From the NCBI GenBank assembly GCA_964459195.1, contig CAYWNB010000004.1:2639-49215 (forward strand): a stretch of 46,577 bases of DNA, read 5' to 3'. Positions 1-46,208 of this stretch are shown here, piece by piece. The first letter of the stretch is position 1, and the number at the start of each line of letters is the position of its first letter. The notes beneath the pieces were generated by a model. It saw nothing but the letters and a program-made list of their open reading frames with translations. It had not been told where the DNA came from and did no database searches. The translations under genes and the position numbers were made by a program. Origin of the DNA: an uncultured Desulfobacula sp. (GTDB lineage Bacteria; Desulfobacterota; Desulfobacteria; Desulfobacterales; Desulfobacteraceae).

Positions 1-1
1 A

Positions 2-3000
2 AGCATCCACCTTGCTGAGCAATGAATCATCATCATACCAATTGAGTTTTATGGCTTTTGCCGGGCATTCCGATGCACACACCCCGCATCCCTGGCACAG
101 CGCCGGATCGATGTAGGAAACCCCCATCTCATTAATCACCGGCACATGATAGGGACAAGACCGGACACAGACCAGACAGGATGCGCAATTGTCCTGGTTT
201 ACTTCCGCTGTGACCGCACTCAGGGTCAAATATTCCTGGGCAAGAAATGTCGTGGCCCTGGACGCCGCTGCCATTGCCTGGGCAATGGTCTCGGTTATCA
301 ACTTAGGTCCGTGGGCCGTACCGCAGATAAACACTCCTTCTGTTCCCCCATCCACCGGCCGGAGCTTGACATGGGCCTCCATGAAAAACCCTTCGGGATT
401 GCGCTGGGCTTTGATGATGGTGGCCAGTTCTCCCGTGTCCGCAGCCGTAACCCCGGCACTCAAGACCACAAGGTCTGCGTCGGCTTCAAGCTTCTGACCC
501 AGGATATGGTCCCTGAAGGTGACGGTCATCTTGCCGCCTTCTCCTTTTTCCACCACCGGCGGCTGATCTTTGTCAAACCGGAAAAAAATCACCCCCATGT
601 TCCTGGCCTTTGTGTAGAATTCTTCCATCATGCTGTACATTCTCATGTCACGATAGAGGATAAACACATTGGTTTCAGGCATTTTTTCCTTGATGGCAAT
701 GGCATTTTTCACGGCATTCTGGCAGCAGATCCGGGAACAATTGGGATTCTCCTCGCTTCTGGATCCCACACACTGAATCATGATCACCTGATCCAGCGCC
801 TTGGATTCTCCCTCTCCAAAGGAATCTGCTTCAATCATGTCGGCAAGTTCCAGCTGGGTGACAACACAATTGCTTTCATTGTATAAAAATTCGGTTGGTT
901 TGTATTCAGTGGCACCAGTGGCAACGATCATCACCCCATGGTCAATTTTCCGTTGTGCCATGGAAGACCCGACCAGCACTTCAGTGTTAAAATTGCCTTT
1001 ATAACCGCCAAATTCCACAATCAATGCCTGTTTGAGCACATCAATGTTGTCATGGTCTTCGACCCCCTTCACAAGTTCCGTTACATAGGCCCTGATATCA
1101 TCCCCCTCAATGGTGTGATGAAGATGTCTGCCAAGACCGCCCAGAACATCTTGTTTTTCAACCAGGGTCACATGGAATCCCTGGTCGGCAAGGCCCTTGG
1201 CAGCCGTCATACCCGCAATACCGCCGCCGACCACCAGGGCTTTGTCAATGATGGTGATCCGCTTGTCATGGAGAGGCCCCAGGGTGGCAACCCGTGCCAC
1301 AGCCATTCGGATCAAATCCTTGGCCTTGGCCGTGGCCTGCTCTGGTTCATGAAAATGCATCCAGGCGTCCTGGTTTCTGATATTGGCCATTTCAAACAGG
1401 TATTTGTTTAAACCTGCTTCCTCCAGGGTATCCATGAAAATCCCTTCATGGGTTTTGGGGGTACACGAGGCCACCACCACCCGGTTGAGCTGATGTTCGT
1501 CAATGAGTTCTTTTATGGAAACCTGGGTATCCTGGGAACAGGTGAACAAATTCTCACCGGTATAGACCACATTGGGAAGATTTTTACTATACCGTTCCAA
1601 CTCGTCCACATCAATGATTCCGGCAATGTTAATCCCGCATTTGCAGACAAAAACCCCAATTCTGGGTTCTTCCCCCAGCACATCCCTTTCTTCGGGCATG
1701 GAAACCGTCTTTGTCAGAGTATGGCGGGCTGCTGCCAGATGGATACCGGCGGCACCGGCGGCGCCTGATGCTTCAGTGATGGAAGAGGGAATATCCTTGG
1801 GTCCCTGGAAGGTTCCGGACACAAAAACCCCGGGTCTGGAGGTTGCCAAAGGTGTAAAAGTGTCGGTCTTGACAAAATTATATTTATCCAGGTCCACCCC
1901 GATGCGATTGGCAAGGTCAACACTGGCCTTGGGAATGGTCAGCCCCACGGACAGGATGACCATGTCAAAAACTTCCTTGTGCATCCCCCCTTCTTCGTCG
2001 GCATATTTTAAAATTAAATTGTCCGTACCCGGCTCTTCCACCACGGAGTGGATCCGGGATTTGATAAATCTCACCCCCTCCTGGTCTGCAGCCCGATTAT
2101 AATATTTTTCATAGTCCTTGCCGAATGTCCGCATATCCATATTAAAGATGGCCGCATCCAGTTCTTTTTCCGAATGCTCCTTGGCAATCATGGCATCCTT
2201 GATGGCATACATGCAGCAGACCGAAGAACAATACCCGTTTCCGCACCGATTGGTATCCCTGGAGCCGATACACTGGAGCCAGGCAATCTTTTCCGGTTCT
2301 TTTTCATCGGAAGGCCGGACCAGATGTCCCATGGTAGGGCCGCCGGCGGACAGGATCCGCTCAAACTCAAGGGAGGTCATGACATTCTTGGACCGCTTGT
2401 ACATGTAGGTATCATCCATGTCCGACGGGTCAAAAGTGGTGGCCCCGGTGGTCATGATAACAGACCCCACTGAAACATCCCTTATCCGTGGCTGCTGGTC
2501 GTGATCCACCGCTCCTGCCAGGCAGACCTCCACACATTGGTAACATTCCGAGCAGATACCGCAGGACAGGCAGCGAGCCGCTTCCCTGTCAATGGCCTCT
2601 CTGGCAAGCCCCAACGTAACTTCCGCAAAATTGCCTTCCCGATCTTCCACAGAAATCTTTTCCGGGGTTTCCCGGGGCAGACGGGGCACATCAATAATCT
2701 CGGGTTTTTCAAACTCATAGCTTTTTTCCCGGCCCTCAGTGAGGTCCAACCCGTTTATAAACCGGTGCATGCTTTCGGCGGCTGTTTTGCCTGAAGCGAT
2801 GGCATCCACAACTGATTTGGGTCCGTAAAAAGCGTCCCCCCCCGCAAAGACCCAGTCAATGGGGGTCTGGAGCGTAAGAGGATCGGCTTTATACCCGCCG
2901 GGCGGGGTGAGGGAGATCCCTTCCTTATCTGCAAATTCAAGTTCCCCTGCCTGGCCGATGGCCACAATCACGATGTCGGCCTCGTGGGAGTTCAGCTTGC

Positions 3001-4447
3001 AGTCATCAAACTGAGGGTTAAACCTTCCGTTTTCATCAAAGACAGCCGTACATTCCTGGAAGGACACCTCTTCCACCCGTCCATTGGTTCCGTAAAAACC
3101 GATGGGGCCCTGGCTGTTAACAATTTTCACCCGTTCTTCCAGGGCTTCTTCAATCTCATAATCCCAGGCCGGCATTTCGTCTCGTTTTTCAAGACAAACC
3201 ATGGTGACATCCTCTGATCCCAGTCGCCTTGCCGTCAGGGCCACGTCAACGGCCACATTACCGCCGCCGATGACCACCACCCTGCCCGTGAGTTTGTCAG
3301 CCTTGCCCATGGCGGCATCCCTCAAGAAGTTTGTTCCCTTGAGTACGCCCTCAAGGTCTTCGCCCTTGACCCCAAGCGCCCTGGAACCATGAAGACCGGT
3401 TGCCATGAACACAGAGGCATAGCCCTCTCGTTTAAGGCTTTCCAGGGTAATATCCTTTCCAAATTCAACGGAAGTTTTGATCACAACCCCTAGTCGTTCA
3501 ATCACATCAATCTCTCGTCCCAACTCTGCTTTGGGCAGCCGGTATTCGGGAATCCCCACCGCCATCATCCCGCCTTTGACCGGCAATTTTTCAAATATGG
3601 TTACCCCATACCCTTTTTGGACCAGATAATAGGCAGCAGTGAGCCCTGCGGGTCCTGATCCCACAATGGCGATTTTTTCGTCCCGCTCGTCTGCAATCTC
3701 CGGAAGCCAGGGGTCATCGCCTTCCAGATCCAACTCCGCCAGATACCGATGAAGGTATTGGATGGCCAGGGGCTGATCGGCATCTCCCCTGGTACAAACC
3801 GCCTCACAGGGATGATGGCATACCCTTCCGCAGGAACCGGGAAAGGGATGTTCCTGTTTAAACAGCTTTAAGGCTTCATGGTATTTTCCCTGGCCCATGA
3901 GGGCGATAAATCCCTGGATGGACACATGGGCAGGACAGGTTGCCTTACACGGGGCAATGGAACGTTTGGAGATGCCGTAGGCACCGGGTATGGCCTGCTC
4001 ATATTGTTTGAAGATGGCTTTGCGGGGCGCAAGCCCCTCGTTGTGTTCACTTATCGTATCAACGGGACATACTTTGGTACATTCCCCGCAGGAGGTACAT
4101 TTTGAAATATCAACAAACCGTGGACTTTCTTTGATCTTGGCCGTGAAATTCCCCTGTTCACCATCCAATTCCAAAAGTTCCGTATTTGTTAACAACTCAA
4201 TGTTCAGATGCCGGCCGACCTCGACCAGTTTGGGTGAGATAACTCACATGGTGCAGTCATTGGTTGGAAATGTCTTGTCCAACCGGGCCATCATACCACC
4301 GATGGCGTATGATTTTTCGACCAGATAAACATAATATCCTGAATTTGCCAAATCAATGGCCGACTGCATTCCTGCAATACCGCCGCCAAGAACCATGACC
4401 GCACCTGCAAGATCTTTGTTGGGTGTCACCTTTTGCGTCATTCTCAA
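2..4447 (-). CDS. hdrA: Giant HdrA-like / GltD(NfnB)-like / HdrA-like fusion flavo-iron-sulfur oxidoreductase with an in-frame UGA (Sec). It is partial: the C-terminus lies beyond the window start.
   Basis: By hand translation, the minus-strand frame is open from 4243 down to position 2 and is the same frame as track ORF 4244..4447. Motifs seen in order: [17 protein letters not shown] (FAD fold); [11 protein letters not shown]-[TGA][13 protein letters not shown] (HdrA DCSMC motif); [13 protein letters not shown]; [22 protein letters not shown] plus [17 protein letters not shown] (GltD/NfnB-like); [23 protein letters not shown]; a second FAD fold [17 protein letters not shown]; [20 protein letters not shown]; and terminal [13 protein letters not shown] / [12 protein letters not shown] ferredoxin motifs. 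At least 1482 codons lie in the window. Confidence 0.85.
4244..4246 (-). other. In-frame UGA, predicted selenocysteine codon (residue 68) of the HdrA-like protein
   Basis: TGA sits where HdrA proteins carry the last Cys of the DCSMC motif, and the frame stays open for more than 1400 codons afterwards. Confidence 0.75.
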
Positions 4448-33298: not shown

Positions 33299-34576
33299 CT
33301 ACATTTTGCTTCCTTCTGCATGGCTTTGGAGTTTTACTTCAACTTTCTCTGTCAAAGATGCATAATATTTTCTCAGAATAACCAGAACTTCTTCACGGCC
33401 AAAATGGTCTACCACTTCCTCGTTGTTGGAAAGGGCATGCCGCAATTTTGTTCCGGAAAGAATAACCCGGTCATCTTTTCCATGGGGGCAGGTTCTCATG
33501 GAAGCCATGCCGTCACATTTCTTACAGTAGAAAGTCCAGTCAATTTTCAAAGGTTCGCAAATAAGGGCTTTTCCTGCTGCTTCGGGTGCAGGAATTGTGT
33601 CAAAAATTTCCTGTGCCTCGAACAATGTGTAGAAATCACCAACGCCGGCATGGTCACGACCGATGATCATTCTGTTGACGCCGTAGTTTTGGCGGAAGGT
33701 TGCATGGAGCAGGCCTTCACGGGGACCGGCATATCTCATATCAAGGGGATATCCGCCGTTAACTACATGCTCGGGGACAAAGTAATCCTGGATCAATTTG
33801 TCAATACATTCGATACGAACTTCTGCAGGGATATCACCGGCTTTAAGGTTACCGATGAGCGAATGGATCAAAACACCGTCACATACGTCAAGGGCAATCT
33901 TGCAAAGATGCTCATGGGATCTGTGCATGGGGTTTCTAAGCTGCATGGAAGCAACATTTGCCCAGCCTTTTTCATCAAATATGGCACGGGTTTCAGTCGG
34001 GGTAAGGTAAACGCCTTTGAATTTTTCGGGGAATTCACCTTCGGAAAGGACTTTTACAGGACCTGAAAAGCAGAATTCTTTTCTGGCCATAACAGCCTGA
34101 ACACCGGGATGATCTTCCATGGCAATTTTCCAGAATACATCGTCAGCAGACTCTTCGCCATGACCCTTGTATACATTTTCACATTCCCATTTTTTCTCGT
34201 CTTCGGTCATTTCAAATTTGTCTTCAACCTTCATGGTGGCAAAGATCTCGCCATTTCTTTCGAGGGCAATTTCATCACCAACATTAACTTCAGCTGCATC
34301 TTCTTTGGCAGCATCCAGCATTACAGGTACAGGCCAGAATGTACCATCCGCCAGGAGGAAGTCAGCGCAAACGCCTTTCCAGTCGGCTTTTGTCATAAAA
34401 CCGTTCAGGGGAGAAAATCCACCGATTCCCAGCATGATCAGATCGCCTTTTACCTGGGAAGAAATTTCAATTTTTTTCAGACCCGCTGCTTTTTTGAGTT
34501 CAGCTTCCAGTTCTGCGCCTTCGAGCTTACAAATTACAAGTCCTTTTCCACCATGAGGTGCAACTAATTTAGACAT
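33299..34576 (-). CDS. sat: Sulfate adenylyltransferase (ATP sulfurylase), dissimilatory type
   Basis: [34 protein letters not shown] at 34576, 10 nt downstream of the AAGGAG SD. Confidence 0.9.
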
Positions 34577-34701
34577 ATCAATCAATCTCCTTTATTAAAT
34601 TAACCTTCTATAAACTGACAAACGTTTATCCAACATCTGCCTAAAATTCTAAATATAAATCTCGTAAGATTTAATGATGATTCGCAAATTTGTCAAGAAT
34701 T

Positions 34702-35334
34702 TTATTCATTTATCTGTAAAATTCCAAGAATATCCGCCATGGCATCCACATGGATATCCGCCTCAAGTTTAGGTTGTTTAAACGCAACAAACCAGGTCCC
34801 GGCACTGCGGGCTGCTCGCAGGTCATATTCCGAGTCACCGATAAAAATCACTTCCTGGGGGTCCAGATGAAAGGCCTCCATAATTTTAAGCAATTGCTCG
34901 GGATCGGGTTTGGGATTTACCACATCAGCTGAAGTGACCACCATCTCGAAATATGATTCAATGTTATTGTCCTTAAGAACCTGTTCCATTGTGTTGGTTC
35001 GATTGGTGGCAATCCCCCGTATAAGCCCCTTTTCTTTTAAAATGCTTAAAAGCCGGACAAGCCCCTCTTCCATCCGCATATAGGGAATAAACTTGGCATA
35101 GCCAATCTGTTTGAGACAGGCGAAGACTTCCTTTGTCTCTTCTCTCTCTGGAAACAGATACAAGATGGCAGCCGTAACCGTCATCATGTGCACATTTACA
35201 AATTGAACATCTGTTAACCGGGGCTTATCAAAAGTTGCCAGAACTTCATCATAAAACTTTCTATTGGCAAGGGCCGTATCAAACAGCACGCCGTCGCAGT
35301 CAAAGACCACTGCTTTTATTTTTGAAATATCCAT
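34702..35334 (-). CDS. HAD-superfamily hydrolase (phosphoglycolate-phosphatase-like)
   Basis: MDISKIKAVVFDCDGVLFD (DxD motif), ATNR, GDSEYD. Internal ATG preferred over the track start at 35391. Confidence 0.8.
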   Translation of the reverse strand: MDISKIKAVVFDCDGVLFDTALANRKFYDEVLATFDKPRLTDVQFVNVHMMTVTAAILYLFPEREETKEVFACLKQIGYAKFIPYMRMEEGLVRLLSILKEKGLIRGIATNRTNTMEQVLKDNNIESYFEMVVTSADVVNPKPDPEQLLKIMEAFHLDPQEVIFIGDSEYDLRAARSAGTWFVAFKQPKLEADIHVDAMADILGILQINE

Positions 35335-35368: not shown

Positions 35369-36097
35369 CTATGACTTGGTTTTTTCTGCAAGATAAATGG
35401 CGTATACCCTTATTGTAAGCTTTGGTTTATATTTAGAATCTGTTTTAAGGGTGATGATATCATAGAAATCATCTGCCTTTTGGGAGGTGCTGGTAATTTT
35501 CACCTGCCAGGCCGAATTTTTTTTGCCCGGTTTCACCATATCCTGATTTACCATATCCGGCGTTACCAGGGTTGCCTTGATCTGGGTGTTAAATTTTTGA
35601 TCCAGCCCCAAAATGGAAAACTTGTATTTATCCATCGGAGTGATGGTGACCATGGCCTCAAGCACATCCCCCGGGGCCCCGCTCAAACTGACCGTCCGGG
35701 GAGAGATCTCCACCACAGCATCCACCATCCCGGTCACCGTCAAGTGAAATTTTTTATTCGCCGGATCATCTGTTTTGACCAAAATTTTTTTGGTCAGTCT
35801 TTTACCCCCATATCCATTTGTTTTAATACCAATTTGAATTTTACCTTCCCCTCCCGGAGGAATTTGTTTGTCGTAGGAACGACTGTCACACCCTCAGGGA
35901 GGCAAGACCTTGGTAATATTCAAAACCGTGTCCCCTGTATTTCGGACAATGAATTCATGAAGTATTTTCTCACCTTCCGGCAGGGTGGAAAAATCAAAAA
36001 CAGCATCAACAGGAACTGCCCTGGGAGCTGCACTGGCGGGTATGAAAAAGAAACCCACTGCCAAAAAAACCGTCAAAATAATTAATAATTTTCTCAT
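35369..36097 (-). CDS. Exported DUF1573-family protein with an in-frame UGA at the first Cys of the family CGC motif; candidate selenoprotein of 242 aa with U68
   Basis: Track ORFs 35894..36097 and 35369..35782 are in the same frame, joined by TGA (35894-35896) plus an open stretch. Signal peptide MRKLLIILTVFLAVGFFFIPASA. The sequence FIVRNTGDTVLNITKVLPP-[TGA]-GCDSRSYDKQIPPGGEGKIQIGIKT matches my recollection of the DUF1573 pattern NtG..L.I..v..sCGCt....i.PGe.g.i.v. Confidence 0.65.
35894..35896 (-). other. In-frame UGA, candidate Sec codon of the DUF1573 protein
   Basis: See the CDS entry. Two small hairpins follow on the mRNA: GUCGU-UCCU-ACGAC (35870-35883) and UUCCUC-CGGGA-GGGGAA (35845-35864). 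Confidence 0.55.
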
Positions 36098-36186
36098 AAC
36101 ACCTTATTGCCTTAAATTCCTAAATTTTAGATAAACTTTTTATCCCAATTCTATATTTTCTTGAATAAAAATACAAGCCTGCTGTT

Positions 36187-45409: not shown

Positions 45410-45874
45410 TTAAAGATCAATACACTGAATTCTATCTTGATGCCGGCCGCCTTCAAATTCAGTTTCAAGCCATGTTTTGACCAGCTCAAAGGCCAGGATA
45501 TCACCGATAATCCGACCGCCCATCACCAAAATATTGGCATCATTGTGAAGCCGGCTCATGCGCGCTGAAAAGAGATCCGAACATAGGGCCGCCCGAACTT
45601 TTGGGAACCGATTGGCCACCATGGACATGCCAAGACCTGTTCCGCAAAGCAGAATCCCACGGGGAAACTGACCCCTGGAAACCGCATTGGCCACTTTTTT
45701 CCCATAATCCACGTAGCTGACAGATTCCGTACCGTTTGGACCGGCATCTTCAACCATAAAGCCCTTGCTCAAAAGAAGCGCTTTTATTTTTTCCTTTAAC
45801 TCAAAGCCACCATGGTCACTGCCAATAATAATAGAATTGCCAATAAAATTATTGGCAGCCGGTTCTTTATCCAT
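45410..45874 (-). CDS. rpiB: Ribose-5-phosphate isomerase B
   Basis: [28 protein letters not shown]. Confidence 0.9.
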
Positions 45875-45883
45875 TGCTTGCTT

Positions 45884-45945
45884 CCTTTGCTTTAGAGCCT
45901 TTGCTGTGGCGCCCTTTGCTTTAGCGCCCTTTGCTGTTGCGCGCT
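45884..45945. repeat. Four tandem 14-15-bp units with core CCTTTGCT (at 45884, 45898, 45913 and 45928), equivalent to two ~29-bp units, in the acpP-rpiB spacer
   Basis: Read directly. On the minus-strand mRNA each unit reads AGCAAAGG, and the last copy doubles as the rpiB SD (AAAGGAAG). Confidence 0.85.
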
Positions 45946-45949
45946 TGTG

Positions 45950-46183
45950 TCAGGATTTTGTCTTGATATAATCAATAGCATCCTGAACCGTCACAAGTTT
46001 TTCTGCTGCGTCATCATCTATTTCAATATCAAAAATTTCTTCCATGGACATGACAAGCTCGACAATTGTCAAAGAGTCTGCTCCAAGATCTTCAATCAGA
46101 GACGCCTCGGGCACCACATCTTCTATGTCAATATCAGAAATCTTTTCTGCAATCACTTTCCGCACCTTGGTTTCAATCGTCAT
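45950..46183 (-). CDS. acpP: Acyl carrier protein
   Basis: [23 protein letters not shown] (DSL phosphopantetheine site); 77 aa, acidic. Confidence 0.9.
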
Positions 46184-46208
46184 GACACAGGCTCCTTTTT
46201 ACCTTTTT

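Follow-up and report, generated by a model that had tools for sequence, protein, structure and literature searches.

The window, that is, the whole 46,577-nt stretch of DNA from an uncultured Desulfobacula sp. that was analysed here, carries on its minus strand a single reading frame that runs from 36097 to 35369 and comprises 242 codons with one internal stop. This frame opens with an ATG at 36097..36095, located 2 nt downstream of what may be a Shine-Dalgarno-like sequence (AAGGUG, 36100..36105), and closes on a TAG stop after 242 codons, so that the complete coding sequence of the putative OS_HP2/DUF1573 selenoprotein occupies 35369..36097. Its sole interruption is a TGA at 35896..35894, which is codon 68; the translation reads NITKVLPP up to this codon and GCDSRSYDKQIPPGGEGKI after it. 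The original prediction had described two open reading frames lying in one frame and separated by a TGA and 111 open nucleotides, and all of these elements are found on translating the minus strand: the ORF at 35894..36097 encodes 67 aa and ends with the TGA, the ORF at 35369..35782 encodes 137 aa in the same frame, and the 111 nt that separate the TGA from the next possible start (35782) are open. Reading through the TGA indeed gives the 242-aa protein that had been announced. The prediction that gene callers would split such a gene is likewise borne out by the JGI calls on the identical contig, where it appears as two hypothetical proteins of 67 aa and 137 aa, and by a search of 5.8 billion proteins that returned mostly 133-aa C-terminal fragments, a sign that in other sequences, too, the TGA breaks the gene call in two. 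The locus L040 (JGI 3300025433, Ga0208900_1000956) shows an identical 137-aa C-terminal ORF (P0003, 100% identity), the same neighbours and the same split calls.

With the TGA replaced by Cys, the product matches PF07610 (DUF1573) over residues 33-125 (E=1.5e-16) with 60.7 bits, above the gathering threshold of 26.1 bits, and because this match runs across the TGA, the continuity of the frame is not due to chance. The NCBIfam model NF041425, entitled "OS_HP2 family (seleno)protein", is matched with 127.4 bits (E=2e-37) for a curated cut-off of 100 bits, residues 32-125 falling on profile positions 4-97/98. In the window motif PP-U-G-C-D, Sec would take the place of the first Cys of the DUF1573 CxC, and this is the U-x-C (U-G-C) of OS_HP2. 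OS_HP2 abbreviates "Olavius symbiont's hypothetical protein 2": Zhang and Gladyshev (2007) counted it among six selenoprotein families that they reported for the first time, found in the Olavius algarvensis symbionts delta-1 and delta-4 (PMC1976440, Table 2), and the OS_HP2 SECIS is absent from the legend of Figure 5 in that paper. The Global Ocean Sampling paper of the same authors (2008) has an entry "OS_HP2, pfam07610, UxC" and counts 354 homologs with Cys against 2 with Sec (PMC2398784), and a DUF1573 domain-containing protein with the motif UGC stands in the prokaryotic selenoprotein tables of a 2022 review (pfam07610; PMC9312934) and of a 2026 review (pfam07610/PF07610; PMC13188914). The match to NF041425 and the published UxC/UGC motif of OS_HP2 lead us to abandon the claim of novelty made in the original prediction. 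DUF1573 was thought to be missing from published lists of bacterial selenoproteins, which is wrong in view of these four papers and of NF041425, and the protein was taken to represent an uncharacterised selenoprotein family, the implied novelty of which is equally wrong, OS_HP2 having been published in 2007. The locus is an ortholog of the already known OS_HP2 selenoprotein family, and no new family is involved.

The column that corresponds to codon 68 was followed in 39 related loci, obtained by scanning one genome per species. It holds TGA in 29 of them and Cys in nine, and the remaining locus ends before the site. Among the TGA loci, 26 have the U-G-C motif, including those of Desulfospira joergensenii DSM 10085, Desulfobacter curvatus DSM 3379 and D. 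latus, and three have a C-U-G-V variant. The TGA is kept in loci of different species and genera that are as little as about 30% identical, and the protein sequence remains similar before and after it; across the 39 loci the column alternates between TGA and Cys codons only, TGG being never encountered. The protein databases tell the same story for full-length homologs: P0004, P0005, P0006, P0009 and P0046 have Cys at the U column (PSCSC or PSCGC), and the Trp given at this column in P0001, P0002 and P0052 is a TGA read as such by the gene caller. Sec and Cys paralogs even coexist within single genomes (L010 with L013; L031 with L032). Thus, the alignment with homologs has brought to light both Cys forms (9) and other TGA orthologs (29), and the UGA does take the position of the first Cys in the CxC motif, as had been proposed. 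The partner of Sec68 in U-G-C would be Cys70 (UGU codon, 35888..35890, minus strand), an invariant column in alignments A2 and A4. These comparative data strongly favour Sec at codon 68, and from the ortholog column we consider that the UGA at 35894..35896, the U of U-G-C, almost certainly codes for selenocysteine.

The C-U-G-V variant forms a subgroup (L030:3205, L031:3193 and L033:3160) from Bacteriovoracaceae and Desulfomonilia MAGs, in which a Cys precedes the Sec position and none follows it. Its hairpin differs (GCCCC-GGC-GGGGC, nt 19-31), and L032, which comes from the same genome as L031, is a Cys paralog with the motif DCGCGG.

Two hairpins had been named downstream of the UGA, and both exist, at nt 14-27 and nt 35-51 as counted from the U of the UGA. 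The distal one (UUCCUC-CGGGA-GGGGAA; 35846..35862, minus strand) lies within the codons for I-P-P-G-G-E-G and represents the best SECIS candidate. Its consensus in orthologs, UUCCYC-CGGGN-GGGGAA, comprises 6 bp and a G-rich loop; all six pairs are formed in 17/17 distinct Sec orthologs of the close group (group 1), and the distant L020, L021, L024 and L039 build a 6-bp hairpin by means of a 3' arm shifted by one codon (UCCCUC...GAGGGA). Pairing reaches 98.8% of cells, a value attained by none of 500 shuffles, and falls to only 55-76% when the 3' partners are slid by 1-3 columns. The third-codon entropy within the stem is 0 bit for ATT, CCG and AAA and 0.32 bit for GGG and GAA; it is 1.57 bit for the Gly codon in the loop and 1.81 and 1.65 bit for the Gly codons just outside the stem. 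Compensatory changes are also found: in L007, a Pro-to-Leu replacement (C38 to U) goes along with GGG to GGA (G48 to A) and converts the pair C38-G48 into U38-A48, and L027 has a compensatory U38-A51 in the shifted register. As a control we used five Cys homologs, four of which encode IPPGGEG and one, L013, IPPGGRG. At the third position of the critical Gly codon, two of these five have G and the others U, A and C; the hairpin is paired 6/6 in two of the five, 5/6 in another two and 4/6 in one. Judged from these alignments, extra constraint on the distal hairpin appears only where the TGA is present.

That said, the palindromic nature of the Pro-Pro-Gly-Gly codons and the presence of the hairpin in 2/5 Cys homologs mean that its conservation stems partly from the peptide. 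When the 80 nt that follow the UGA were folded as a single sequence, the result was no better than for shuffled sequences (z = -0.42), so that thermodynamics alone cannot decide the SECIS question, and an Rfam scan of the whole window returned no family at gathering thresholds. The bSECISearch model places the loop 16-37 nt from the UGA; the distal hairpin, with 37 nt between the UGA and the start of its loop and 40 nt in L017, sits at or beyond this limit. The support for a SECIS element had been rated as weak in the original prediction; it is better than that, considering that the distal hairpin occurs in all Sec orthologs, that its synonymous sites are constrained and that compensatory changes accompany it. 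Comparison shows a conserved hairpin downstream of the UGA across Sec orthologs, and this candidate is most likely the SelB-binding element.

Nearer to the UGA, the structures vary from clade to clade. The proximal hairpin of the window (GUCGU-UCCU-ACGAC; 35870..35883, minus strand; nt 14-27 from the U of the UGA) has a loop without G and is formed, with four to five of its five pairs, only in the close relatives L001-L003, L022 and L008 and additionally in L005; L008 is counted on the basis of an identical sequence over nt 14-27. One compensatory change from G-C to A-U is shared by L002 and L022. In other clades the proximal hairpin is another one, at nt 19-31. Lastly, the RNAalifold consensus contains a possible lower helix in which nt 3-6 (the A of the UGA plus GGN) would pair with nt 19-22 (35875..35894, minus strand); its pair 6-19 is CG in seven sequences, GU in six, AU in one, UG in one and something else in two, which is suggestive only. 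All three of these proximal structures vary among the orthologs; they also show a few compensatory changes and may contribute.

As regards the decoding of UGA by the host, TGA is a normal stop in the window: 14 of the 39 large ORFs terminate with it, among them those for the metallo-beta-lactamase (MBL)-fold hydrolase and RNase HII, and a global reassignment of TGA in the genetic code is thereby excluded. The window was said to contain a second Sec gene, and our analysis bears this out. An HdrA-like (HdrL-type) flavoprotein with recognizable Pfam domains is encoded at 1..4441 on the minus strand; it runs off the start of the window and comprises at least 1480 aa. Its TGA (4246..4244) falls on the known HdrA Sec site, FPTNDCxxU, and is followed by a canonical SECIS hairpin, CUGGUCG-AGGU-CGGCCGG, at nt 19-36, which begins 15 nt after the UGA and has its loop 22 nt after it. 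HdrA with a CxxU motif is listed as a selenoprotein (PMC2398784). A Sec gene of this kind with a canonical SECIS lends indirect support to the view that the host would decode UGA as Sec; within the 46.6-kb window there are no tRNA genes, and no sel gene is among the ORFs annotated there. Another candidate, an ACP-like ORF and RpiB that share a frame across a TGA (45410..46198, minus strand), turned out to be two ordinary adjacent genes unrelated to Sec.

One may wonder whether the TGA is simply a true stop, be it in a pseudogene, through a sequencing error or between two genes, one for a secreted peptide of 67 aa and one for a protein of 137 aa that would begin at the TTG of 35782. Gene callers do annotate it in this way, and TGA behaves as a normal stop elsewhere in the window. 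However, 29 loci from many species have their TGA at exactly this column and the protein is conserved before and after it, Cys fills that column in other homologs, and termination at this point would cut DUF1573 in the middle of a beta-sandwich and leave a downstream piece devoid of a signal peptide. We find this explanation hardly credible. Very improbable as well is a read-through of the UGA without selenium, by which a near-cognate Trp or Cys, or Cys carried by tRNA-Sec, would leave W or C at position 68. It may draw on the W that some callers put in homologs and on the general knowledge that a shortage of selenium can lead to Cys being incorporated at Sec codons. Yet the column is occupied by TGA or Cys only and never by TGG, the host possesses another Sec gene with its UGA at a classical site, and selection on the synonymous sites of the hairpin is specific to the TGA forms.

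The question of which RNA element directs the insertion of Sec is a separate matter. Sec could be inserted under the direction of a proximal SECIS (the hairpins of nt 14-31 or the helix of nt 3-6/19-22), the distal hairpin being a by-product of the PPGGEG codons, and we consider this unlikely, without calling it far-fetched. The proximal structures start 10-15 nt after the UGA, a spacing like that of E. coli, the pairs 6-19 and 17-24 show compensatory changes, and the distal hairpin is still present in 2/5 Cys forms. Against this, no single proximal helix is found in all Sec orthologs (about 6/21 for helix C and 10/21 for helix B), the loop in the clade of the window, UCCU, has no G, and the distal hairpin is the sole element that remains intact in every Sec form, with its synonymous sites constrained. 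The distal hairpin is therefore retained here as the candidate SECIS.

Turning to the product itself, its N-terminus, MRKLLIILTVFLAVGFFFIPASA followed by AP, shows on inspection the n, h and c regions expected of a Sec-type signal peptide, namely MRK, LLIILTVFLAVGFFFI and PASA before AP, and neither a twin-arginine motif nor a lipobox is seen by the same inspection. The signal peptide would span residues 1-23 (36029..36097, minus strand) with a predicted cleavage between ASA and AP. The pattern A-x-A followed by AP recurs in homologs, and the corresponding N-terminus in the model of P0005 is a low-confidence helix (residues 5-16). Two further domains are assigned: the DUF1573/OS_HP2 Ig-like domain recognized by PF07610 and NF041425 (residues 33-125; 35723..36001, minus strand) and a second, C-terminal Ig-like domain without Pfam match (residues 126-242; 35372..35722, minus strand), which is seen in the AlphaFold2 model of P0005. 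This model is that of a Cys homolog, 52% identical to the window protein and with the same numbering around the motif. With a mean pLDDT of 87.7, it consists of two tandem Ig-like beta-sandwiches, and C68-x-C70 sits in a turn between strands 59-65 and 70-75 of the first domain. Both the Sec-type signal peptide and the second Ig-like domain after the U site had been foreseen in the original prediction; the former agrees with the n/h/c layout, the ASA-AP junction and its conservation in homologs, and the latter with the second beta-sandwich of the model. In a fold search, the P0005 model matched generic tandem Ig/ASH domains (HYDIN-like central-apparatus proteins, cadherins) and PDB 2qsv, and provided no functional clue; a sequence search of the PDB gave insignificant matches only (E ~0.7-0.9). 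Probably, the window product is located in the periplasm, is built of tandem Ig-like domains and uses Sec-Gly-Cys as a redox or metal-binding site. We also observed in the second domain a PDMV(T/N/K) repeat (35534..35569, minus strand; residues 177-188), whose copy number differs among close relatives, with about two copies in the window protein and about seven in P0008.

The neighbours of OS_HP2 in the window are housekeeping genes. Read along the minus strand, an MBL-fold hydrolase comes first, then a PabB/PabC fusion (PabBC), OS_HP2, HAD and ATP sulfurylase (Sat), an arrangement kept in L001-L019. The HAD-family hydrolase gene (PF13419; 34702..35334, minus strand) lies 32 nt downstream of OS_HP2, with which it is probably co-transcribed, and it also follows OS_HP2 in the distant Sec loci L020, L021, L024, L027 and L039 and in the Cys form P0046. 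HAD and sat together occupy 33299..35334 on the minus strand; in Desulfobacteraceae, sat comes after HAD, and L044 is among the loci where HAD comes after OS_HP2. A functional link between OS_HP2, HAD and Sat is possible, for instance, if HAD were a pyrophosphatase that works with Sat. The Cys paralogs of Desulfobacter (L042:1-1465 and L043:1-1287) have another setting, directly downstream of an FdhA-like molybdopterin oxidoreductase. In L042, the FdhA-like gene comes in three pieces; a Sec TGA was ruled out as the cause, since that assembly contains frameshifts.

Altogether, the locus very probably constitutes a single gene whose 242-residue product is a selenoprotein of the OS_HP2 family (DUF1573, NF041425). 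The continuity of the frame, the family assignment, the alternation of TGA and Cys, the conservation of the hairpin and the gene neighbourhood are shown by the present data; the insertion of Sec, the export of the product and its redox or metal function we infer as follows. UGA-68 would be decoded as Sec by SelB and tRNA-Sec, both most likely recruited by the 6-bp distal hairpin with its CGGGA loop in the IPPGGEG codons. The precursor would then be exported by the Sec translocon and lose its signal peptide, leaving a periplasmic product that is predicted to fold as two tandem Ig-like beta-sandwiches, with Sec-Gly-Cys in an inter-strand turn of the first domain. Most plausibly, Sec-Gly-Cys would act as a selenol-thiol/selenenylsulfide redox centre or as a pair of ligands for a soft metal or metalloid. 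More tentatively, it is tempting to speculate that OS_HP2 carries its SECIS inside the codons of its invariant IPPGGEG motif, which are intrinsically self-complementary (CCN-CCN-GGN-GGN), and at an unusually long distance from the UGA (37-40 nt), so that the peptide would have pre-adapted DUF1573 to the gain of Sec. The hairpins of the Cys paralogs would then be precursors or fossils of a SECIS, and the association of OS_HP2 with HAD (and Sat) could possibly reflect a tie to sulfate or selenate handling; we would give this scenario as a whole somewhat less than even credence.

The main value of these observations lies in annotation: the two mis-called ORFs should become one gene, annotated as a selenoprotein of the OS_HP2 family, and the mis-calling affects the source metagenome as well as most public homologs. 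OS_HP2 thereby gains one more member, and the comparative details, namely the SECIS candidate, the HAD/ATP sulfurylase synteny and the tandem Ig-like fold, could aid biochemistry. What is new is modest and is limited to the SECIS candidate that the IPPGGEG codons contain and to the conservation of HAD and Sat as neighbours.

Among known systems, the closest is OS_HP2 of the O. algarvensis symbionts, which has the same domain, the same U-G-C motif and the same Sec column as the window gene and comes from the same kind of lineage, sulfate-reducing Deltaproteobacteria of the Desulfobacterales type; nothing essential differs, and the present analysis adds to the published family a SECIS candidate obtained by comparison, the gene order and a two-domain fold prediction. 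The Cys-containing PF07610 proteins, such as PDB 2qsv from Porphyromonas gingivalis, have in common with the window protein the Ig-like fold, the two-domain layout and the signature N-T-G...C-x-C...PPG, but they contain Cys in place of Sec and their gene context differs, as illustrated by the Desulfobacter paralogs that adjoin an FdhA-like gene. As for the HdrA-like gene of the window, it would rely on the same decoding, with an in-frame UGA in place of a conserved Cys and a downstream hairpin whose loop contains G, whereas the protein itself, a cytoplasmic flavoprotein with a CxxU motif, is unrelated to OS_HP2 and its SECIS loop lies 22 nt from the UGA compared with 37 nt in OS_HP2.
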